Source of the DNA: Escherichia phage ECp13 | Sequence record: PP274704.1 | Strand: one strand, 5' to 3' | DNA: 64,000 bases | Shown: one piece after another, positions 4,082-38,618 of the stretch | Position numbering within the stretch: position 1 is the first letter of the stretch | Layout: every line of letters starts with the position of its first letter | Notes under the pieces: model-generated | The model's database searches: none | What the model was told of the DNA's origin: nothing | What the model saw: the letters and a program-made list of their open reading frames with translations, nothing else | Made by a program: the position numbers and the translations under genes

Positions 4082-4299
4082 ATATGAACGAAGCTCTTAT
4101 TAACGATTTACGTCTTGCCGGATATGAAGTAAATACAAATGGCATTGGTTTAACTCAAATTGAAGGAAATGGATTCATCCTTGAGTATGAATTTAGCCAA
4201 TGGTGGTTATATGCTAATTATGGCGAATTGATTGAATACGTTGACCAGTTTGATTCACTAGATGCAGCTCTTGAAGCGGCTAAGTTGATGAATGTATGA
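4078..4299 (+). CDS. Hypothetical protein (73 aa)
   Basis: ORF track; ATGA-type overlap with upstream ORF. Confidence 0.5.
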   Translation: MNMNEALINDLRLAGYEVNTNGIGLTQIEGNGFILEYEFSQWWLYANYGELIEYVDQFDSLDAALEAAKLMNV

Positions 4300-4565
4300 A
4301 ATTTATTAATATTTCTATTACTATTGAAAATTATGGCATTTTCTATGTTGATCAATATATGAAAATTTCATTTTTCCCAAATAAGACTGGGGTTGGATAT
4401 TGGGAAAGCCATGTTTCTGAATTAAATGAAAGTGAATATGTTAGCACGCATGAAAAGTTTTTAGACTTTTTATATCACGCTGATTTAACTAGTCATTATA
4501 TAGATATTCATGAATTTAAAAAGATGATGGAGAAAGTGTTCCAAGCATACTGCTTACTTAGATAA
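4296..4565 (+). CDS. Hypothetical protein (89 aa)
   Basis: ORF track; overlapping start/stop with upstream ORF. Confidence 0.5.
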   Translation: MKFINISITIENYGIFYVDQYMKISFFPNKTGVGYWESHVSELNESEYVSTHEKFLDFLYHADLTSHYIDIHEFKKMMEKVFQAYCLLR

Positions 4566-6137: not shown

Positions 6138-7340
6138 ATGAAAGTATGCATTTTTATGGCTCGAGGTCTTGAAGGTTGCGGCGTAACTAAATTTTCTCTC
6201 GAGCAGCGTGATTGGTTTATTAAAAATGGTCATGAAGTAACTTTGGTTTATGCTAAAGATAAATCATTTACCCGTAATTGCGCGCATGATTATAAATCAT
6301 TTTCAATTCCGGTTTTATTGGCAAAAGAATACGATAAAACACTTAAGCTGGTAAATGATTGTGATATTCTAATTATCAATTCAGTTCCTGCTACTTCAGT
6401 CGAAGAAGACACTATTAATAACTATAAAAAAATTATTGATAACATTAAACCTTCAGTTCGTGTTGTAGTTTATCAACATGACCATTCTTCTCTTTCTTTG
6501 CGCCGAAATTTGGGATTAGAAGAAACTGTTCGTCGAGCTGATGTTATTTTTAGTCATTCTGATAATGGCGATTTTAATAAAGTTTTGATGAAAGAATGGT
6601 ATCCAGAAACAGTTTCTCTGTTTGATGATATTGAAGAAGCACCGACTGTATACAACTTTCAGCCTCCTATGGATATTGCGAAGGTTCGATCAACCTACTG
6701 GAAAGATGTTTCTGAAATTAATATGAATGTCAACCGTTGGATCGGTCGTACGACTACATGGAAAGGTTTTTATCAGATGTTTGATTTTCACGAAAAACAT
6801 CTTAAACCTGCGGGATTAAGTACTATTATGGAAGGTCTGGAACGTTCTCCTGCGTTCATTCCTATTAAAGAAAAAGGAATTCCATACGAATATTATCGTC
6901 TTCATCAAGTAGACCAAATTAAAATTGCTCCTAATTTGCCGACGCAAATTCTCGACCGTTATGTAAATAGCGAAATGCTTGAACGCATGAGTAAATCCGG
7001 ATTTGGTTATCAGCTGAGTAAGTTGGATAAAAAATATCTACAACGTTCTTTAGAATATACTCATCTCGAGCTTGGTGCGTGTGGAACAATTCCAGTATTT
7101 TGGAAATCTACTGGCGAAAATTTAAAATTCCGTGTTGATAATACTCCGTTAATTTCTCATGATAGCGGTATCGTTTGGTTTGATGAAAATGACATGGAAT
7201 CAACATTTGAGCGTATTAAAGAACTGTCATCTGACCGAAATCTTTATGACCGTGAACGCGAAAAAGCTTATGAATTTTTGTATCAGCATCAAGATTCAAG
7301 CTTCTGCTTTAAAGAACAGTTTGACATTATTACAAAATAA
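6138..7340 (+). CDS. agt: DNA alpha-glucosyltransferase
   Basis: 400 aa; N-terminus MKVCIFMARGLEGCGVTKFSLEQ matches remembered T4 alpha-gt; between 55 and 47. Confidence 0.85.
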   Translation: MKVCIFMARGLEGCGVTKFSLEQRDWFIKNGHEVTLVYAKDKSFTRNCAHDYKSFSIPVLLAKEYDKTLKLVNDCDILIINSVPATSVEEDTINNYKKIIDNIKPSVRVVVYQHDHSSLSLRRNLGLEETVRRADVIFSHSDNGDFNKVLMKEWYPETVSLFDDIEEAPTVYNFQPPMDIAKVRSTYWKDVSEINMNVNRWIGRTTTWKGFYQMFDFHEKHLKPAGLSTIMEGLERSPAFIPIKEKGIPYEYYRLHQVDQIKIAPNLPTQILDRYVNSEMLERMSKSGFGYQLSKLDKKYLQRSLEYTHLELGACGTIPVFWKSTGENLKFRVDNTPLISHDSGIVWFDENDMESTFERIKELSSDRNLYDREREKAYEFLYQHQDSSFCFKEQFDIITK

Positions 7341-30167: not shown

Positions 30168-30479
30168 ATGTTTTATGTATATGCGATAGTGTATAGAGAC
30201 AAAGATGGATTTGCAGTGCCTGTTCCTCTTGATGAACATCGTCCTGCTGTATTTTTTGAAAGGGAGATTGCTGATAAAGTTTTTACAACTCTTAAAGAGC
30301 AGTATCTACTAGCTTTAGGTATGGGAATTCCTAGATTAGTTGAGACTCCACGCAAGTTTTGGTTTAATAAAATAGAAGTTAAACATGTTAAGCCTGATGT
30401 AGACACACAAAGATTATATCGGCGAATTTTAGATACTGGGCGTATTGTTAGTATACCAATTGCAGGGAATTTACGATGA
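30168..30479 (+). CDS. Hypothetical protein (103 aa), dda.1 position
   Basis: ORF track; coupled to dda. Confidence 0.55.
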   Translation: MFYVYAIVYRDKDGFAVPVPLDEHRPAVFFEREIADKVFTTLKEQYLLALGMGIPRLVETPRKFWFNKIEVKHVKPDVDTQRLYRRILDTGRIVSIPIAGNLR

Positions 30480-31795
30480 CATTTGATGATTTGACAGAAG
30501 GCCAGAAAAATGCCTTTAACATCGTTATGAGGGCTATTAAAGAAAAGAAACATCATGTAACTATTAATGGACCTGCTGGTACTGGTAAGACTACTCTTAC
30601 TAAGTTCATCATTGAAGCCTTAATATCTACGGGCGAAACTGGCATTATTTTAGCAGCTCCTACTCATGCAGCTAAAAAGATTCTTTCAAAACTGTCAGGG
30701 AAAGAAGCGAGTACTATTCACAGTATTCTCAAAATTAACCCGGTAACATATGAAGAAAACGTTCTTTTTGAACAAAAAGAAGTACCGGATTTAGCTAAAT
30801 GTAGAGTATTAATCTGCGACGAAGTGTCAATGTATGATAGAAAGCTATTTAAAATTCTGCTTTCAACTATCCCGCCGTGGTGTACTATAATTGGAATAGG
30901 CGATAATAAGCAAATTAGACCTGTTGACCCAGGAGAAAACACCGCTTATATCAGTCCGTTCTTTACACATAAAGATTTTTATCAGTGTGAACTCACTGAA
31001 GTTAAACGCAGTAATGCTCCTATTATTGATGTAGCTACTGATGTTCGCAACGGTAAGTGGATTTATGATAAAGTTGTTGACGGGCATGGAGTACGTGGAT
31101 TTACTGGTGATACCGCTTTACGTGATTTTATGGTAAATTATTTTTCAATCGTAAAATCACTAGACGATTTGTTTGAAAATCGCGTAATGGCATTTACGAA
31201 TAAATCTGTTGATAAGTTAAATAGCATTATTCGCAAAAAGATTTTTGAAACTGATAAAGATTTTATCGTTGGTGAAATTATTGTAATGCAGGAACCATTA
31301 ATTAAAACATATAAAATTGATGGAAAGCCTGTGTCAGAAATTATTTTTAATAACGGACAATTAGTTCGTATTATAGAAGCAGAGTATACATCAACATTTG
31401 TTAAAGCTCGTGGTGTTTCTGGAGAATATCTAATTCGTCATTGGGATTTAACGGTAGAAACTTACGGCGATGATGAATATTATCGTGAAAAGATTAAAAT
31501 AATTTCATCTGATGAAGAGCTGTATAAGTTTAACTTATTTTTAGGTAAAACGGCAGAAACGTATAAAAATTGGAATAAAGGTGGAAAAGCTCCGTGGAGT
31601 GATTTTTGGGATGCTAAATCACAGTTTAGTAAAGTGAAAGCACTTCCTGCATCAACATTCCATAAAGCTCAGGGCATGTCTGTAGACCGTGCTTTCATCT
31701 ATACACCTTGTATTCATTATGCAGATGCTGAATTGGCTCAGCAGCTTCTTTATGTTGGTGTCACTCGTGGTCGTTATGATGTGTTTTATGTGTGA
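30476..31795 (+). CDS. dda: DNA helicase Dda (SF1B)
   Basis: 439 aa; Walker A GPAGTGKTT; close match to remembered T4 Dda. Confidence 0.9.
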   Translation: MTFDDLTEGQKNAFNIVMRAIKEKKHHVTINGPAGTGKTTLTKFIIEALISTGETGIILAAPTHAAKKILSKLSGKEASTIHSILKINPVTYEENVLFEQKEVPDLAKCRVLICDEVSMYDRKLFKILLSTIPPWCTIIGIGDNKQIRPVDPGENTAYISPFFTHKDFYQCELTEVKRSNAPIIDVATDVRNGKWIYDKVVDGHGVRGFTGDTALRDFMVNYFSIVKSLDDLFENRVMAFTNKSVDKLNSIIRKKIFETDKDFIVGEIIVMQEPLIKTYKIDGKPVSEIIFNNGQLVRIIEAEYTSTFVKARGVSGEYLIRHWDLTVETYGDDEYYREKIKIISSDEELYKFNLFLGKTAETYKNWNKGGKAPWSDFWDAKSQFSKVKALPASTFHKAQGMSVDRAFIYTPCIHYADAELAQQLLYVGVTRGRYDVFYV

Positions 31796-32294: not shown

Positions 32295-32529
32295 ATTAAG
32301 TTTGCATCAGTTTAAGTCTCTTATGGCAAATGTTAAAGCTGTCATTCAAGAAAATTCAGGACCTGATAATGTTACTATTCGCGAAAAAGCTTTAAAGATA
32401 GTATACAGTCTTGAAGAGATACAAAAAGATATTGAATCTATGGCAAAATTTATTGATGAGCCCATTAATAAAGTTTATATCCAAGATTATACTGTAGGTC
32501 AAATTCGCGATTTAGCGAGGAAAATTTAA
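32287..32529 (+). CDS. Hypothetical protein, paralog 3 (80 aa from ATG 32287; ORF track starts 32254)
   Basis: ...SLEEIQKDIESMAKF...VYIQDYTVGQIRDLARKI. Confidence 0.4.
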   Translation: MIELSLHQFKSLMANVKAVIQENSGPDNVTIREKALKIVYSLEEIQKDIESMAKFIDEPINKVYIQDYTVGQIRDLARKI

Positions 32530-33212
32530 TGTTTGATTTTATTATAGATTTTGAAACAATGGGAAGCGGTGAAAAGGCAGCTGTTATTGATTTGGCTGTT
32601 ATTGCCTTTGACCCTAATCCAGAAGTAGTTGAAACATTTGATGAATTAGTTTCACGCGGCATTAAAATCAAGTTTGATTTAAAAAGCCAAAAAGGACATC
32701 GTCTTTTTACTAAAAGCACTATCGAATGGTGGAAAAATCAATCTCCTGAAGCTCGAAAAAATATTGCACCATCAGATGAAGATGTAAGCACTATCGATGG
32801 TATTGCAAAATTTAATGATTACATCAATGCGCATAATATCGATCCTTGGAAATCTCAAGGCTGGTGCCGTGGAATGTCGTTTGATTTTCCAATTTTAGTT
32901 GATCTCATTCGTGATATTCAGCGTCTTAACGGCGTTTCCGAGAATGAGCTTGATACGTTTAAGTTAGAACCTTGTAAATTCTGGAATCAACGCGATATTC
33001 GCACCAGAATTGAAGCACTTCTGCTTGTTCGTGATATGACCACATGTCCTCTTCCAAAGGGAACTTTAGACGGGTTCGTTGCGCATGATTCTATTCATGA
33101 CTGTGCGAAAGACATCCTGATGATGAAGTATGCTTTGCGATATGCTATGGGTCTTGAAGATGCTCCGTCAGAGGAAGAGTGCGATCCTCTATCTCTTCCA
33201 ACAAAACGATAA
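32529..33212 (+). CDS. dexA: Exonuclease A DexA (DEDD family)
   Basis: 227 aa; N-terminal DFETMG motif. Confidence 0.85.
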   Translation: MFDFIIDFETMGSGEKAAVIDLAVIAFDPNPEVVETFDELVSRGIKIKFDLKSQKGHRLFTKSTIEWWKNQSPEARKNIAPSDEDVSTIDGIAKFNDYINAHNIDPWKSQGWCRGMSFDFPILVDLIRDIQRLNGVSENELDTFKLEPCKFWNQRDIRTRIEALLLVRDMTTCPLPKGTLDGFVAHDSIHDCAKDILMMKYALRYAMGLEDAPSEEECDPLSLPTKR

Positions 33213-33252
33213 AAAGTTGTTTACTTCCTCGGTTAGTTGTGGTATTATAACA
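33210..33252 (+). promoter_or_regulatory. Early promoter (GTTTAC plus TATTAT)
   Basis: aaaagttGTTTACttcctcggttagttgtggTATTATaac. Confidence 0.5.
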
Positions 33253-33275
33253 CCATAGCTACTGAGGATAATAAA

Positions 33276-33785
33276 ATGAAAATTTATCGTGTTGAATCAT
33301 CGTTTAGTATTCTTGATTATGAAGATGCTATAACAATACGTCGAAATCTTTGTGTTCAAATAACGCCGTACAGGAGTATAATAGATTCATGGAGCGAAGA
33401 GTGGCTATTACGTGTAGGTTATAGTAGACCTAATTTTATGCATCATAGCGATAATAATAAAAGAATTCCTCTTCCGCGCGAAGACAAATTATTAGTTAAA
33501 AATGCTAATATAGCAATTAATACTAAATTTGAGAAAGAGGAATATGTAGGCGTAGATCACTATATTCCAGGATGGTTTATAGCTCTTTATCATTTTGCTT
33601 TCGCTAGTGAATATGATATGATGAGATGGTTCACACGAGAAGAGCGTGAAGAATTATCTTCTAAAGGATTTTATCTCGCTGTATACGAAGTTCCTGAAGA
33701 TGAAGTTATCATTGGCGGACACCAAGTAATGTTCCGTAAATCCCATGCTGAACTTGTAGATTTTATTGAAATGAGACAATTATGA
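33276..33785 (+). CDS. Hypothetical protein (169 aa)
   Basis: ATG 33276 with GAGGATAA SD; track start 33237 is TTG inside the promoter -10. Confidence 0.55.
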   Translation: MKIYRVESSFSILDYEDAITIRRNLCVQITPYRSIIDSWSEEWLLRVGYSRPNFMHHSDNNKRIPLPREDKLLVKNANIAINTKFEKEEYVGVDHYIPGWFIALYHFAFASEYDMMRWFTREEREELSSKGFYLAVYEVPEDEVIIGGHQVMFRKSHAELVDFIEMRQL

Positions 33786-34324
33786 AATTTAATTATAATC
33801 CTGAATACACCCCAAATCCTATAGATAAAATATTTGATATGGATACAGCAAGCATGTACGGCACTCTTGTTAAACCATTAGAAATTAAGGAAACCTTTAT
33901 GACTGCTCGGATCATCGAAATTGGCAAAACCTACAAACTGGTTGAAACTGAAATTAAAACTACTGAACTAAGTTTGGGTTATAAAGCATTGACCAGTGTT
34001 TTGGGTGAAGGCGAGTTTGTGGTTAAAAGTTTTTCAAAAAGTAATTGGCATGATAAGAATAAAGCTTACGTGATTCGAGCACAACGCTTAGATAATGATG
34101 AAGTAATTAAAACTATAGTCTTTGAAGTAGAGCTTATCCTCTTCCAAGAATGCGATCCTACTGACCTTCTAACTCGTGCTGTAGCTATCAAGACTCCATT
34201 TGTTTCGGTCTATGGTTGGGTAACAGACCAGTGGATTGAAGATGGTGTTGAACTTCTGAACGTGGTTCATGCAGGCGATTTTAGCGTAGTACCTCGTAGT
34301 GCAGTGGTAGCTATTTTGAATTAA
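33782..34324 (+). CDS. Hypothetical protein (180 aa), paralog of 34401..34898
   Basis: C-termini align: VTDQWIEDGVELLNVVHAGDFSVVP vs ITDQWVEDGVKLYNAVFLGTYKVIP. Confidence 0.55.
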   Translation: MKFNYNPEYTPNPIDKIFDMDTASMYGTLVKPLEIKETFMTARIIEIGKTYKLVETEIKTTELSLGYKALTSVLGEGEFVVKSFSKSNWHDKNKAYVIRAQRLDNDEVIKTIVFEVELILFQECDPTDLLTRAVAIKTPFVSVYGWVTDQWIEDGVELLNVVHAGDFSVVPRSAVVAILN

Positions 34325-34358
34325 TAGTTTACAAACTCTTGGGACCAGAGTATAATGG
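34320..34358 (+). promoter_or_regulatory. Early promoter (GTTTAC, 18 nt, TATAAT)
   Basis: tagtttacaaactcttgggaccagagtataat. Confidence 0.55.
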
Positions 34359-34400
34359 TCCCGTGGAGTATAAAATCTTTTTAACAAGTGAGAGATAACT

Positions 34401-34898
34401 ATGATTATTAATATTGGTGAAATTGCTCGTGTATCTGATAAATCCCGTTCTAAAGCAGCAGGAAAATTGGTTGAAATTGTAAGCATTCAGCTTAAACACG
34501 GTGTTAAAGATGAAGATTCTGAAGTAAAAGTGCGTATCATTCCTAAAGATGGAAAATCTAAACCTCAGTTTGGCTATGTTCGTGCGAAATTTATTGAGTC
34601 TGCGTTTTTGAAAGCTGTTCCTGCTAAAGGAATTGAAACGATTGATACTTCGCATGTAGGCGTAGACTTTAAGTGGAAACTCGGTCAAGCTATTAAGTTC
34701 GTTGCTCCTTATGAATTCGAATTTACTGAAGATGAGGAAGGGGTTGTTCAAAAACACCGTACTCGCGCTATGTGTGCATACATTACCGATCAGTGGGTAG
34801 AAGATGGCGTTAAGTTGTACAACGCGGTATTTTTAGGAACATACAAAGTCATTCCAGAAAGTTGGATTAAACACTATAGCAAAGCCCGCTGTGCATAA
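34401..34898 (+). CDS. Hypothetical protein (165 aa), paralog of 33782..34324
   Basis: ORF with GAGAGATAA SD. Confidence 0.55.
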   Translation: MIINIGEIARVSDKSRSKAAGKLVEIVSIQLKHGVKDEDSEVKVRIIPKDGKSKPQFGYVRAKFIESAFLKAVPAKGIETIDTSHVGVDFKWKLGQAIKFVAPYEFEFTEDEEGVVQKHRTRAMCAYITDQWVEDGVKLYNAVFLGTYKVIPESWIKHYSKARCA

Positions 34899-34927
34899 AG
34901 TTTAAAATTTTTTCATAAAACTATATA

Positions 34928-34972
34928 CATCAGTAGTTGATTATGGTACTATATCAATATCAACTACTGATA
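34928..34972 (+). promoter_or_regulatory. Promoter-embedded stem-loop: 11-bp inverted repeat flanking a -10-like TATGGTACTATAT
   Basis: tcagtagttga (34930-40) pairs with tcaactactga (34960-70). Confidence 0.4.
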
Positions 34973-34995
34973 CAGAAAACAACTTGGAGAATAAA

Positions 34996-35265
34996 ATGGA
35001 AAACTTAATTATCATCGAACAATCTTTCAACGATTATGGTATGGCTTACGGTTATCGTGCGATAATGGAAGATTCTCGTGGATGTGTTATCGATATTGCT
35101 GAATGTAAAGATTTACTGCAGCTTTTGAAGATTGTTCGTAAAAATTGGGATTGTGAAAACATTAAAGTTCGTGTTGTAACGGAAGAAGAAACTGTTTTTC
35201 ATGATGTAAAATTCGCCAAAGGTGCTGCCACTCTTCTGAAACGCATCGCTCCAATGTTCAATTAA
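34996..35265 (+). CDS. Hypothetical protein (89 aa)
   Basis: ATG with GGAGAATAAA SD; track start 34984 is TTG. Confidence 0.5.
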   Translation: MENLIIIEQSFNDYGMAYGYRAIMEDSRGCVIDIAECKDLLQLLKIVRKNWDCENIKVRVVTEEETVFHDVKFAKGAATLLKRIAPMFN

Positions 35266-35278
35266 TGAGGAAATTGTA

Positions 35279-35494
35279 ATGAAACGTAAAAATGTTCAGA
35301 ATTGCACTAATGACGAATTTGAAGATGTATTATTCGATCCAGATTTGGTAGTAGTTCAAAAGGAACACACCGTTAAGTTTACTCACTTGACTTCGGTTTA
35401 TGTGTATGAAAAGGTTGGTGATAAACAACCCATTTACGGTGTATTCCGTGAAATTACTGAAAATGGCACAACTTACTGGAAGGAAATTTATTAA
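35279..35494 (+). CDS. Hypothetical protein (71 aa)
   Basis: ORF track; GAGGAAA SD. Confidence 0.5.
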
Positions 35495-35913
35495 TGGCTA
35501 TTAGATTTGAAGTTAATAAATGGTATCAATTTAAAAATAAACAAGCTCAAGAAAATTTTATTAAAGACCATACTGATAACGGAATCTATGCACGCCGTTT
35601 AGGTATGCATCCTTTTAAAATTTTAGATGTTGACCATCTTGGTCGTCCTACTAAAATTGTGACATCTACTGGCACAGTTGGATATGCAAAACATGGTGAT
35701 ATCCTTGATGAAAACTTTATCTGGCTCTCTACCAACGAAGCTGGGTTCTTTGATGAAGTGGAAAATCCATATCAGGCAGCTGAAGAGCAAGAGCAGGAAG
35801 AGCAAGAACAAATAGAAGATTTCACAGAATTTCCTATCATGAAAGTTACTATTGAAAATAATGAACAGGCATGGTCCTTGTATCAGATGTTGAAAGCACA
35901 CTTTAAGGAATAA
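35494..35913 (+). CDS. Hypothetical protein (139 aa) with acidic EQ-repeat
   Basis: ORF track; internal [15 protein letters not shown]. Confidence 0.55.
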
Positions 35914-35915
35914 TT

Positions 35916-36092
35916 ATGCCAATGTATGATTATAAATGCCAATCCGAAGATTGCGGGCATGAATATGAAAAAATTAAAAAGATTTCTGAACGAGAAAATG
36001 ATGTTTGTCCTAAATGTCATCGTCTGTCTACTCGTCGGCCTTCTGCTCCTAAGCATGTGAATGGTGGATTTTACGACTTACTTAAAGGGTGA
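35916..36092 (+). CDS. Small zinc-ribbon protein (58 aa), FmdB-like CxxC...CxxC
   Basis: MPMYDYKCQSEDCGHEYE...DVCPKCH; ATG follows previous stop. Confidence 0.45.
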   Translation: MPMYDYKCQSEDCGHEYEKIKKISERENDVCPKCHRLSTRRPSAPKHVNGGFYDLLKG

Positions 36093-36094
36093 TT

Positions 36095-36466
36095 ATGTTT
36101 AAAATCGGTAAGAAATATCGTGTTCGTGAAGGTGAAGAAAAGAAATATCTGCTTTCTTCTATTTATAGGAATGGTTCTATTAATGCCGTAATATCTACAA
36201 GCGAATTTATCGTTGAAGATATGAAAGGTAATAATGTTACAATGATTAGTACAGCATCTGGAAATGACGGAAAAATTCTTCACAGTTTTCAGAGTAATGT
36301 TCTAATATATGATGAAGAATTTGACTTCTTCGAAGAAGTTCCTGAAGATTTTAGTTTTGAATGCACTATCACTATGAAATCTGGCGACCCTCTTTCTTTT
36401 ACGGTTAAAGATGAAAGAAGCCGCTTGAGAATTATTAGTCTCCTTCAAGCCATTAAATTTGAGTGA
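36095..36466 (+). CDS. Hypothetical protein (123 aa)
   Basis: ORF track (GTG 36089 / ATG 36095). Confidence 0.5.
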   Translation: MFKIGKKYRVREGEEKKYLLSSIYRNGSINAVISTSEFIVEDMKGNNVTMISTASGNDGKILHSFQSNVLIYDEEFDFFEEVPEDFSFECTITMKSGDPLSFTVKDERSRLRIISLLQAIKFE

Positions 36467-36750: not shown

Positions 36751-36800
36751 CTTTATGATTACCGGAGTATAATATTCCCGAAACCAAACGAGGATAAGTG

Positions 36801-38618
36801 ATGATTAAGAATGAAATTAAAATTCTGAGCGATATTGAACATATCAAAAAGCGTAGCGGCATGTACATTGGCTCTTCCGCTAATGAAATGCATGAGCGCT
36901 TTCTGTTTGGTAAATGGGAAAGTGTTCAGTATGTACCTGGTCTTGTTAAGCTTATTGATGAAATTATCGATAACTCAGTAGATGAAGGTATTCGTACTAA
37001 GTTTAAATTCGCGAATAAAATTAATGTTACTATCAAAAACAATCAAGTAACAGTTGAAGATAACGGTCGTGGTATTCCACAAGCGATGGTTAAAACACCT
37101 ACTGGTGAAGAAATTCCCGGTCCTGTTGCCGCCTGGACTATTCCAAAAGCAGGTGGTAACTTCGGTGATGATAAAGAACGTGTCACTGGCGGTATGAACG
37201 GTGTTGGTTCTAGTTTAACTAACATTTTTTCTGTGATGTTTGTCGGTGAAACTGGCGACGGTCAAAATAATATTGTAGTTCGTTGTTCAAATGGCATGGA
37301 AAATAAATCATGGGAAGATATTCCCGGAAAATGGAAAGGAACTCGTGTTACTTTCATTCCTGATTTTATGTCATTTGAAACTAATGAGCTGTCTCAAGTT
37401 TATCTTGACATTACACTGGATCGTCTCCAGACACTTGCAGTAGTTTATCCTGATATTCAATTTACCTTTAATGGTAAAAAGGTTCAGGGTAATTTTAAGA
37501 AATATGCACGCCAATATGATGAGCATGCTATTGTTCAAGAACAAGAAAATTGTTCTATTGCGGTTGGTCGTTCACCAGATGGTTTTCGTCAATTAACATA
37601 CGTCAATAACATTCATACTAAGAATGGTGGCCATCACATTGACTGCGTTATGGATGATATTTGTGAAGACCTTATTCCACAAATCAAACGTAAGTTCAAA
37701 ATTGATGTAACTAAAGCACGTGTTAAAGAATGTTTGACTATCGTTATGTTTGTTCGTGATATGAAAAACATGCGATTTGATTCTCAGACTAAAGAGCGTT
37801 TGACTTCTCCATTTGGTGAAATTCGTAGTCATATTCAGCTTGATGCTAAAAAGATTTCACGTGCTATTTTAAATAATGAAGCAATTTTAATGCCAATTAT
37901 TGAAGCTGCCTTGGCTCGTAAATTGGCAGCAGAAAAAGCAGCAGAAACTAAAGCAGCTAAAAAGGCTTCTAAAGCTAAGGTTCATAAACATATTAAAGCG
38001 AATCTTTGTGGTAAAGACGCTGACACTACTCTTTTCTTGACTGAGGGTGATTCTGCTATCGGATATCTTATTGATGTTCGTGATAAAGAACTTCATGGTG
38101 GTTATCCATTGCGTGGTAAAGTTCTCAACAGTTGGGGTATGTCATATGCTGATATGCTTAAAAACAAAGAACTGTTTGATATTTGTGCAATTACTGGATT
38201 AGTTCTTGGTGAAAAAGCTGAAAACTTGAATTATCATAATATTGCTATTATGACCGATGCTGACCATGATGGTCTAGGAAGCATTTATCCTTCTCTGCTC
38301 GGATTTTTTAGTAATTGGCCAGAACTGTTTGAACAAGGAAGAATTCGCTTCGTCAAAACTCCTGTAATCATCGCTCAGGTCGGTAAAAAACAAGAATGGT
38401 TTTATACAGTCGCTGAATATGAGAGTGCCAAAGATGCTCTACCTAAACATAGCATCCGTTATATTAAGGGACTTGGCTCTTTGGAAAAATCTGAATATCG
38501 TGAGATGATTCAAAACCCAGTATATGATGTTGTTAAACTTCCTGAGAACTGGAAAGAGCTTTTTGAAATGCTCATGGGAGATAATGCTGACCTTCGTAAA
38601 GAATGGATGAGCCAATAG
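36801..38618 (+). CDS. 39: Topoisomerase II large subunit gp39, uninterrupted full-length form (includes the part T4 encodes as gene 60)
   Basis: 605 aa; GHKL ATPase N-domain; TOPRIM LTEGDSAIGY; PLRGK. Confidence 0.9.
   Translation: MIKNEIKILSDIEHIKKRSGMYIGSSANEMHERFLFGKWESVQYVPGLVKLIDEIIDNSVDEGIRTKFKFANKINVTIKNNQVTVEDNGRGIPQAMVKTPTGEEIPGPVAAWTIPKAGGNFGDDKERVTGGMNGVGSSLTNIFSVMFVGETGDGQNNIVVRCSNGMENKSWEDIPGKWKGTRVTFIPDFMSFETNELSQVYLDITLDRLQTLAVVYPDIQFTFNGKKVQGNFKKYARQYDEHAIVQEQENCSIAVGRSPDGFRQLTYVNNIHTKNGGHHIDCVMDDICEDLIPQIKRKFKIDVTKARVKECLTIVMFVRDMKNMRFDSQTKERLTSPFGEIRSHIQLDAKKISRAILNNEAILMPIIEAALARKLAAEKAAETKAAKKASKAKVHKHIKANLCGKDADTTLFLTEGDSAIGYLIDVRDKELHGGYPLRGKVLNSWGMSYADMLKNKELFDICAITGLVLGEKAENLNYHNIAIMTDADHDGLGSIYPSLLGFFSNWPELFEQGRIRFVKTPVIIAQVGKKQEWFYTVAEYESAKDALPKHSIRYIKGLGSLEKSEYREMIQNPVYDVVKLPENWKELFEMLMGDNADLRKEWMSQ

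Follow-up and report, generated by a model that had tools for sequence, protein, structure and literature searches.

Two consecutive genes in the 64-kb stretch of DNA analysed here (the window) are read, with a probability of about 80%, as the motB.1-type/motB pair of a T-even phage, in which the two genes belong to separate early transcription units and encode proteins with a common C-terminal barrel, and in which a stem-loop at the promoter between them would insulate the second unit from the first. The window corresponds to the Tequatrovirus early region dda-dexA-motB-gene 39, and the 180-aa open reading frame (ORF180) and the ORF following it (Table 1) are the motB.1-type gene and motB of the non-essential early region located between dexA and gene 39 in T-even phages (Tequatrovirus). 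These identities are based on Pfam and PHROG matches, on synteny with T4 and annotated relatives, and on adjacency in IMG/VR: the gene order dexA, motB.2-like gene, ORF180 and motB is the same in T4 and SA20RB, and a MotB.1-type ORF is present directly upstream of motB in 15 of 17 IMG/VR loci, the remaining two being left unresolved by the ORF filter. Coordinates, lengths and peptides of both ORFs agreed with the preliminary description, but its statement that their function is unknown does not hold for the second gene, motB, the product of which is a nonspecific DNA-binding protein, toxic to E. coli, that copurifies with H-NS and changes the footprints of H-NS (PMC6070864, PMC7827196). The pair itself adds little, as both genes, the domain and their adjacency have already been published and are in current annotations ("MotB-like transcriptional regulator"); MotB and MotB.1 were reported to have the C-terminal domain in common and different N-terminal domains (Patterson-West et al. 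2021, PMC7827196, section 3.2), and the RB69 pair and its common domain have also been published (PMC1524935).

Table 1. Features of the motB.1-type/motB locus, with positions in the window and the evidence for each.
Feature	Position	Strand	Evidence
Early-type promoter (GTTTACT...TGTGGTATTAT) of the motB.2-like and ORF180 unit	33220..33248	+	Promoter scan; also in T4
motB.2-like gene	33276..33785	+	phrog_1106; synteny of relatives
ORF180, MotB.1-type early protein	33782..34324	+	phrog_2333, E 4.4e-73
Conserved linear motif DMDTASMYGTLVKPL, ORF180 aa 19-33	33836..33880	+	Invariant D19, D21, Y26, P32, L33
ORF180 N-terminal small beta-barrel domain (predicted), aa 45-123	33914..34150	+	AlphaFold2, hhalign, PMC12152347
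ORF180 MotB-type C-terminal domain, aa 125-180 (DPTDLL...GWVTDQWIEDGVELLNVVHAGDFSVVPRSAVVAILN)	34154..34321	+	BLASTP, Pfam, PHROG, AlphaFold2, profiles
Early-type promoter of motB, GTTTAC(A)-TATAAT	34327..34356	+	Scan; identical in T4
Stem-loop TGGGACC [AGAGTATAAT] GGTCCCG enclosing the -10 hexamer	34340..34363	+	Pairing kept across lineages
Shine-Dalgarno-like GAGAG of motB	34390..34394	+	Sequence; conserved in alignment
motB, 165 aa	34401..34898	+	PF17613, E 1.9e-98
Hairpin downstream of motB, 13-bp stem and short inner helix	34929..34971	+	Folding

Regarding MotB, the second ORF scores 327.4 bits against PF17613, covering positions 1-160 of the 162 in the profile, and is orthologous to T4 MotB, its position and upstream intergenic sequence being those of T4 motB. 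The protein is predicted to have an N-terminal beta-barrel (aa 1-67), a disordered linker (aa 70-83) and a C-terminal domain (aa 86-165). It has 165 aa compared with 162 aa in T4 MotB, from which it differs slightly in the hairpin inserted into the C-terminal domain and in nothing functionally distinctive, and the closest homologues among the matches listed are 85-98% identical to it. Published HHpred analysis assigned a KOW-like N-terminal domain and an eIF5A-like OB domain at the C-terminus (PMC7827196); KOW or OB families in Pfam gave no match to either domain at E values up to 0.1.

The ATG of ORF180 overlaps the stop codon of the upstream motB.2-like gene (ATGA), and the gene terminates in a double stop (TAATAG). 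It occupies the same slot between motB.2 and motB, and belongs to the same phrog_2333, as T4 MotB.1 and the 'Category 2/4' MotB.1-like proteins (Patterson-West et al. 2021), but differs from T4 MotB.1 in having the extra conserved N-terminal linear motif DMDTASMYGTLVKPL, which lies in a stretch predicted to be disordered by AlphaFold2. The N-terminal barrel is modelled as a helix (61-74) followed by strands 78-86, 95-102, 108-114 and 121-123 with a pLDDT of about 80, the model of the whole protein being of moderate confidence only (pLDDT 70.6). [quoted passage not shown] 2025), the wild-type members of which are not known to have an RNA-related activity. The barrel appears to be remotely related to the LSm-like GoF/39.1-like (phrog_622) family: hhalign aligned aa 45-123 with the 39.1-like phrog_622 protein of the window at a probability of 76% and E 2e-5, a weak relationship, and the window's own GoF gave no significant alignment with this domain. 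The C-terminal domain (DPTDLL...GWVTDQWIEDGVELLNVVH) is nearer to MotB.1 than to MotB, the C-terminal 74 aa having 66% identity to full-length T4 MotB.1 versus 47% over 32 aa to MotB, and no other part of the ORF180 family is as well conserved, nearly every residue from 145 to 165 being invariant among 46 sequences. BLASTP found no alignment between the N-terminal modules of ORF180 and T4 MotB.1; the ORF180-type N-terminal region was detected in 386 phage records and the T4-type in 160. Knock-outs of T4 motB.1 had no laboratory phenotype (PMC12152347).

The C-terminal similarity of the two proteins, first noticed in the preliminary description, was borne out in pairwise and in structural comparison. 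BLASTP aligned ORF180 142-173 with MotB 123-154 (15/32 identities, E 2e-9), and the last four strands of the AlphaFold2 models are in exact register (143-153/156-163/166-171/175-179 in ORF180 and 124-134/137-144/147-152/156-159 in MotB). Profile-profile comparison of 46 ORF180 and 63 MotB homologues aligned 37 columns with a probability of 98.6% (E 7.9e-16) and nothing in the N-terminal halves, and PF17613, which has a curated gathering cut-off of 25 bits, matched ORF180 residues 143-175 at 29.6 bits over profile positions 121-153, making it a member at the level of the domain only. A chance similarity is ruled out by the BLASTP, Pfam and profile-profile statistics. In a hand-selected alignment the homology spans the whole C-terminal domain, which measures about 57 aa in ORF180 and, with an insertion of approximately 20 residues, about 77 aa in MotB; the core motif of the common barrel is (W/Y)(V/I)TDQW(I/V)EDGV.L.N.V..G.(F/Y).V(V/I)P.S. 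The term paralog pair is thus appropriate for the C-terminal domain but not for the N-terminal domains, which have no detectable sequence similarity, and "duplicate copy" overstates the case, the paralogy being confined, as judged from sequence, to the C-terminal domain.

An HMM search of the 64-kb window for a third copy of the domain found just the two. Among 1.84 billion representatives, a profile search detected the domain in only 33 protein clusters, with varied N-terminal modules, and the family therefore looks narrow, comprising T4-like phages and close relatives; five long matches with multiple stretches (361-862 aa, E 3e-5 to 4e-4) are probably repeat proteins. No sequence relatives of ORF180, MotB or the domain profile were detected in the PDB. 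The best Foldseek matches in the PDB for both AlphaFold2 models were tandem Tudor, KOW6-KOW7 and eIF5A, all weak (E about 3e-3, TM 0.3-0.5); these two-barrel proteins agree with the published HHpred call for MotB, but the resemblance is in fold only, with no sequence similarity, and does not indicate family membership. ORF180 and MotB are each predicted to consist of two small beta-barrels in tandem, of which only the C-terminal barrel is common to both.

The family forms a mosaic of exchanged modules. Fusions of MotB-type N-terminal with MotB.1-type C-terminal domains, proteins with single or double ORF180-type modules and one deletion fusion were found, the ORF180-type modules occurring once or twice and either ahead of or behind the linear motif, and at the same locus T4 and the window phage have different N-terminal modules on an almost identical C-terminal domain. 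The fusions, the module repeats and the N-terminal swap at one locus point to repeated recombination at domain boundaries. Alternatively, a whole two-barrel gene could have been duplicated in tandem, with the N-terminal barrels subsequently diverging past recognition. Duplication of one gene to give the other was suggested by Patterson-West et al. (PMC7827196), and is consistent with the same layout of tandem small beta-barrels predicted for both proteins, both of which match tandem Tudor/KOW, and with the adjacency of the genes in all 15 resolved IMG/VR loci; however, this origin appears unlikely given that the profiles align in C-terminal columns only, that MotB-type N-terminal domains are found fused to MotB.1-type C-terminal domains, that the ORF180-type modules vary in number and order, and that the N-terminal module differs between T4 and the window phage. 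Less certainly, the common C-terminal barrel might give both proteins one activity, be it the binding of nucleic acid or docking onto DNA coated with H-NS, in which case the functions of the individual proteins would be diversified by their variable N-terminal modules.

Regarding transcription, the early promoter motif proposed to separate the two ORFs is present, with GTTTAC at 34327-34332 separated by 18 nt from TATAAT at 34351-34356. Taken as TTTACA-17 nt-TATAAT, it has 11/12 matches to the sigma-70 consensus and is the top-scoring site in 33000-35400, and it conforms to the T4 early promoter pattern of GTTTAC (-36 to -31), a TAnnnT -10 and sigma-70 spacing. It has no GT-rich extended -10 (gtggTAttAT / TGn), CCAGAG preceding the -10, whereas most of the window's other early-type promoters have the TGTGG extended -10; further upstream, GAATTAATA is rich in A and T but is not an A-tract, so that it does not qualify as an A-rich UP region. 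The 82-nt intergenic sequence is identical in T4, and of the 737 phage records that match it 433 do so with an identity of 95% or more, compared with just 36 of 600 records for the surrounding 1.8 kb. Two early units can be defined from sequence, one comprising the motB.2-like gene and ORF180 and served by the promoter at 33220, the -10 of which lies within a 9-bp imperfect palindrome, and the other comprising motB and served by the promoter at 34327. Of the earlier claim that the second gene is independently transcribed, the promoter motif is confirmed, and transcription as a unit of its own is plausible, to the extent that sequence and conservation indicate it; no mapped transcription start for the motB promoter was found in the searchable literature. 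A late promoter at a second TATAAA box (34369-34374) was rejected, since TATAAAAT mismatches TATAAATA and other lineages have not preserved the box.

The -10 of the motB promoter sits in the loop of a conserved stem-loop. Eight sequence variants all retain a 7-bp stem; among them are a compensatory C-G to T-A change and, in one lineage, a wholly different stem, GAGAGCC/GGCTCTC, around the same -10. Stems of 6 or 7 bp were scored directly by script because MAFFT shifted pairs out of register at a one-base length difference. In 5.6% of shuffles of a single sequence, a -10 is likewise enclosed by a stem of 7 bp or more, and it is therefore the changes seen between lineages, in about ten sequences, that carry the case for the stem. 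The 3' end of the stem-loop should lie approximately at the predicted motB transcription start, so that the complete hairpin would form only in transcripts reading through from upstream. By analogy with the proposals made for PeSL cassettes, the hairpin most likely attenuates or ends the read-through transcript or stabilises its 3' end, and expression of motB would thereby be insulated from the upstream unit. An intrinsic terminator between the genes is unsupported, as the stem lacks a U-run on its 3' side (GGTCCCGTGGAGTATAAAATC...) and a terminator scan found none there, although one public record does annotate a terminator at this position.

PeSL cassettes of T4-like phages have the consensus TTTACW-N17-TAYWAT for T4/PST (PMC2839356, PMC4122927). 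The window element fits this consensus and, as in these cassettes (Arbiol 2010; Comeau 2014), is intergenic, has an AT-rich upstream region and a stable stem-loop, and lies in a plastic region beside a swapped module, with the composite unit of AT-rich region, sigma-70-like promoter, stem-loop, Shine-Dalgarno sequence and ATG complete within 34322-34403. However, the PeSL stem-loop is located just upstream of the promoter and acts as a terminator, whereas the window stem encloses the -10 and is not ahead of the -35, and the stem type reported for PST/T4 is AGNA/TCNT, compared with GGGACC/GGTCCC here. PeSL cassettes are repeated elements that flank variable genes and mediate the exchange of modules; no second copy of the motB promoter/stem-loop element is present in the window, and in some phage genomes segments of it also match elsewhere. 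A promoter within a stem-loop kept by compensatory changes provides a compact example of possible early-unit insulation in T-even phages.

The inverted repeat could instead be a DNA operator, involving no RNA structure, for a dimeric protein that tunes or shuts off the motB promoter; its centre falls on the -10 hexamer, a position from which a bound protein would keep RNA polymerase out, and the shut-off of T4 early promoters is not fully explained (PMC2988021). The variants GGGACC/GGTCCT, GGGATC/GGTCCT, GGGGCC/GGTCCC and GAGAGCT/GGCTCTC, however, pair only via G·U, which is valid on the sense strand only and keeps the sense-strand RNA helix yet breaks the dyad symmetry of the DNA, and the different stem around the same -10 in one lineage fits selection for pairing and not for a recognition sequence, making an operator improbable.

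Comparison with the reference records revealed that T4 MotB.1 is almost certainly misreported there as a protein of 119 aa, without three of the five strands of the conserved domain, owing to one extra G that places the stop inside the domain motif. Among 50,697 phage records the extra G is found only in AF158101.6 and NC_000866.4, at about position 7304 of the latter; motB.1 is in frame in eleven other T4 records, encoding a 143-aa protein with the complete domain, and in over 100 other phages, and T4T and MT984581 annotate the 143-aa MotB.1. The T4 reference was the source of the synthetic constructs ordered for at least one recent functional study. In the RB69 reference, two frameshifts in this region leave an ORF of 29 aa, and intact RB69-type proteins are encoded by P0254, L017 and L022. 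The interrupted T4 and RB69 reference copies would suit a functionless, decaying remnant of a motB duplication as the source of the C-terminal similarity of ORF180, but this is exceedingly improbable in view of the intact copies elsewhere and of the near invariance of this domain across the ORF180 family.

A broader reading, which is put forward tentatively and seems doubtful as a whole, is that the C-terminal barrel would be a portable module for docking onto H-NS-coated DNA or other host nucleoprotein, from which T-even phages build, by recombination, a small combinatorial set of host-takeover proteins. If so, its interchangeable partners would be KOW-like MotB-type barrels, one or two GoF/LSm-like barrels and a movable peptide, DxDxxSMYGTLxKPL, the published null results for T4 MotB.1 may reflect the truncated 119-aa form and not the native 143-aa protein, and the covarying -10 hairpin would represent a separate kind of PeSL cassette, with the insulator built into the promoter.

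Upstream of the pair, the true start of the motB.2-like gene is probably the ATG at 33276 (MKIYRVESS...), the mechanical ORF beginning at a TTG at 33237, within the promoter; T4 motB.2 likewise begins with MKIYRVESS. Downstream of motB, the central unpaired/inner-helix region of the hairpin at 34929..34971 carries TGGTACTAT, the -10-like element of the next promoter-like site.

As the preliminary description proposed, the 180-aa ORF of MotB.1 type (ORF180) and the adjacent 165-aa ORF share a C-terminal domain; both ORFs, their lengths and the peptides quoted for them were correct, and BLASTP aligned the two domains with 15/32 identities (E 2e-9). Comparison of the family profiles (46 vs. 63 sequences) gave a probability of 98.6% (E 7.9e-16, 37 columns), residues 143-175 of ORF180 exceed the gathering cut-off of the Pfam motB model, and alignment of the C-terminal regions showed that homology extends over the whole domain, with DPTDLLTRAVAIKTPF..GWVTDQW... 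of ORF180 aligned to DFKWKLGQAIKFVAP, an insertion of ~20 residues and AYITDQW... of the second ORF. Judged from these alignments, the similarity is well above chance. A domain HMM found exactly two copies in the 64 kb, and a tblastn copy-number survey located the domain at 1631 places in 780 phage records, equivalent to about two per genome (one to three copies among the matches listed).

The promoter motif between the ORFs was likewise present as described, whereas the statement that function is unknown holds only in part, as the second ORF is MotB (PF17613, E 1.9e-98), for which functions have been reported. In T4, MotB is produced early; its DNA binding is tight and nonspecific, it copurifies with H-NS and alters H-NS footprints, and its overexpression upregulates part of the H-NS regulon. 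The protein is toxic to E. coli, and phage fitness is improved by it (PMC6070864, PMC7827196). The relationship of the two genes has also been published: RB69ORF010c was described as a paralogous duplication of the adjacent motB (Nolan et al., 2006; PMC1524935), and an alignment of 102 phage homologues (section 3.2) showed a common C-terminal domain but differing N-terminal domains in MotB and MotB.1, distinguished two more categories keeping the C-terminal domain with other N-terminal domains, reported both genes in 40 other genomes and considered that one gene is possibly a duplicate of the other (Patterson-West et al., 2021; PMC7827196). Thus, the observation is confirmed and its interpretation is partly right, but it rediscovers known biology, and what the analysis adds are modest but checkable by-products: a reference frameshift, a covarying stem at the -10, a module mosaic and a movable peptide.

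The two genes lie in the early region of a Tequatrovirus, a T-even phage, whose gene order here matches that of T4 and SA20RB. The 1.8 kb around ORF180 and motB matches 600 phage records, IME339 with 96% identity. Gene 39 is a single ORF lacking the gene 60 split and mobA, unlike the divided topoisomerase subunit of T4; at this locus the phage is more like RB69 and SA20RB. The mechanically called ORF of the motB.2-like gene begins at a TTG (33237-33275 stretch) inside its early promoter; translation almost certainly begins at the ATG at 33276, which gives the same MKIYRVESS start as in T4. GoF (E 4e-41) and the 125-aa 39.1-like protein (E 1e-29) both match phrog_622, and form a second related gene pair in the same early region, belonging to a published LSm-like family.

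Features of the ORF180/motB region of Escherichia phage ECp13 (PP274704.1)
Feature	Position	Strand	Remarks
dda	30476-31795	+	followed by three small ORFs
dexA	32529-33212	+	directly before motB.2-like gene
motB.2-like gene		+	between dexA and ORF180
ORF180	33782-34324	+	between motB.2-like gene and motB
motB promoter		+	GTTTACA-17 nt-TATAAT; starts 3 nt past the double stop codon of ORF180
7-bp stem	34340-34363	+	TGGGACC[AGAGTATAAT]GGTCCCG; -10 hexamer in loop
motB	34401-34898	+	downstream of ORF180
93-aa ORF		+	3' of motB
cef		+	after 93-aa ORF
goF	35494-35910	+	after cef
39.2		+	after goF
39.1-like gene	36089-36466	+	after 39.2
gene 39, unsplit	36798-38618	+	606 aa

In genomic position ORF180 corresponds to T4 motB.1, with which it shares a PHROG family (phrog_2333, E 4e-73). 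Full-length T4 MotB.1 has 66% identity with the last 74 residues of ORF180 but gave no BLASTP alignment with its N-terminal 110 residues; at the DNA level, T4 and this phage are near-identical in the stretch that runs from the C-terminal domain across the intergenic region into motB, and unrelated upstream of the domain boundary. The difference between the two phages suggests a module exchange at a single locus. In tblastn searches, 386 phage records had the ORF180-type N-terminal region and 160 had the T4 type.

A search of 1.84 billion representative proteins with the C-terminal domain profile detected only 33 clusters at E up to 1e-3 (22 at E up to 1e-10), in proteins that are 100-250 aa long and have the domain at their C-terminus or close to it. 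The cluster representatives are mosaics. In MotB itself, a MotB-type N-terminal domain is joined to a MotB-type C-terminal domain, and in eight clusters the same N-terminal type precedes a MotB.1-type C-terminal domain. Other representatives combine ORF180-type modules, either one or two, with the C-terminal domain, or fuse the motB.2 N-terminus to the tail of the domain in a 43-aa protein resembling a deletion product. In this last representative (P0260, MKIYRVESSFSILDYEDGVELLNVVHAGDFSVVPRSAVVAILN), residues 1-17 of MotB.2 are followed by a MotB.1-type domain tail; the protein appears to derive from a deletion between short ...YED and ...IED matches, with most of motB.2 and motB.1 gone. The peptide DxDxxSMYGTLxKPL (ORF180 residues 19-33, window 33836-33880), in which D19, D21, Y26, P32 and L33 are invariant in the ORF180 family, belongs, despite this conservation, to a part of the protein for which AlphaFold2 predicts disorder. 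It is present in about half of the family representatives, either preceding the LSm-like barrel (the ORF180 arrangement) or ~16 residues ahead of PTDLL, the start of the C-terminal domain, and therefore behaves as a movable linear motif. Together, the mosaic and the movable peptide form a sequence pattern better explained by recurrent recombination at module boundaries than by one duplication of the whole gene.

Both proteins were modelled with AlphaFold2, MotB with family alignments. The MotB model (pLDDT 81, pTM 0.70) has an N-terminal barrel (1-67), a disordered linker (70-83) and C-terminal strands at 97-112, 115-134, 137-144, 147-152 and 156-159; that of ORF180 (pLDDT 70.6) is disordered over residues 1-41, followed by a helix (61-74), strands up to residue 123 and C-terminal strands at 133-136, 143-153, 156-163, 166-171 and 175-179. 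The last four strands coincide exactly between the models at the 19-residue BLASTP offset. The top Foldseek PDB matches of both were tandem Tudor domains (53BP1, UHRF1), DSIF KOW6-KOW7 and eIF5A, with weak scores (E ~3e-3, TM 0.3-0.5), and each model can be read as a tandem of two small beta-barrels. Such an arrangement agrees with the published KOW-plus-eIF5A-like assignment of MotB, at a level too weak for a choice between SH3-like and OB-like folds for the shared domain. The N-terminal domains of MotB.1, GoF and Frd.2 have been placed in an LSm-like/SH3-like fold family (Kim et al., 2025; PMC12152347); in hhalign the ORF180 N-terminal barrel aligned with the 39.1-like protein of the window (probability 76%, E 2e-5), and profile comparison with the window's GoF gave no alignment.

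In the T4 reference (NC_000866.4/AF158101.6), motB.1 terminates as ...GWVTDQWIGRWR* at 119 aa. One extra G (ATTGGAAGATGG vs. ATTGAAGATGG) breaks the frame within the TDQWIEDG motif (positions 4292-4330, minus strand, of the extracted T4 locus; T4 genome ~7291-7330; equivalent to window 34223-34240), and the next frame still encodes EDGVELLNVVHAGEYSVVPRSAVVAILN*. A 50-nt probe across the extra G matched only these two accessions among 50,697 phage records, whereas the in-frame probe matched 119, including 11 other T4 records, RB55 and RB59. The in-frame gene encodes 143 aa, the length at which T4T and MT984581 annotate MotB.1. Since the extra G occurs in only two records, the 119-aa, 13.8-kDa MotB.1 most likely reflects either an error in the reference sequence or a mutation specific to one stock. 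Kim et al. (2025; PMC12152347) had motB.1 synthesised commercially, citing NC_000866.4 coordinates and reporting a 13.8-kDa product; term searches of this study and of the 2018 MotB paper turned up no mention of a frameshift. The RB69 reference (NC_004928.1; 4877-5373, minus strand, of the extracted locus) has two frameshifts in the motB.1 C-terminal domain, leaving a 132-aa ORF and the 29-aa ORF012, which explains the 29-aa 'Category 3' peptide. Relatives encode intact 164-aa RB69-type proteins (P0254, a cluster representative, and motB loci L017 and L022); the RB69 frameshifts are either sequencing errors or the mark of a strain-specific pseudogene.

The motB promoter was the best sigma-70-type match in the region in a promoter scan and fits the consensus TTTACW-N17-TAYWAT of T4/PST promoter-early stem-loop (PeSL) cassettes (PMC4122927); the TGTGG extended -10 present at most other GTTTAC promoters in the window is absent here. 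T4 carries the identical 82 nt between the genes, and this sequence has at least 95% identity in 433 of 737 matching phage records, a level reached by the surrounding 1.8 kb in only 36 of 600. In the intergenic regions extractable from 15 IMG/VR loci, a small set, the stem around the -10 is kept in eight sequence variants, four of which hold pairing via G·U; one variant has a compensatory change (TGGGGTC/GACCCCA), and one lineage has another stem entirely (GAGAGCC/GGCTCTC) around the same TATAAT. Mosigvirus-like loci differ in spacing, and the stem enclosing their -10 is weaker, with only 5 bp; a short hairpin is possible between their -35 and -10. Among the 16 GTTTAC-type promoters in the window, only those at 33220 and motB have their -10 enclosed by a stem of 7 bp or more, with the caveat that a stem of such length arises there in 5.6% of single-sequence shuffles. 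The G·U pairs are valid on the sense strand only, an asymmetry that speaks for an RNA structure and against a DNA operator. Transcripts from the motB promoter would start approximately at the 3' end of the stem, so that the complete hairpin would form only in read-through RNA from the 33220 promoter; without a U-run 3' of it, the stem is not a classical intrinsic terminator. By analogy with PeSL cassettes, for which such roles have been proposed (PMC2839356), the hairpin probably attenuates the upstream transcript or stabilises its 3' end.

The early promoter of the motB.2-like gene (33220) has its -10 in a palindrome (33219-33261; TAGTTGTGG [TATTATAACA] CCATAGCTA, 9 bp with G·U). Downstream of motB, a hairpin at 34929-34971 (13-bp stem plus a short inner helix) is centred on the -10-like TGGTACTAT, with TATACA upstream at -35 spacing; motB thus lies between two promoter/stem-loop cassettes. 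Just 3' of the motB stem-loop, a GGAG followed by a (T/A)ATAAA box (34364-34375) is conserved in most lineages (GTGGAGTATAAA, CTGGAGAATAAA, ATGGAGAATAAA) and could be a putative RegB cleavage site near the 5' end of the motB mRNA or a vestigial second -10.
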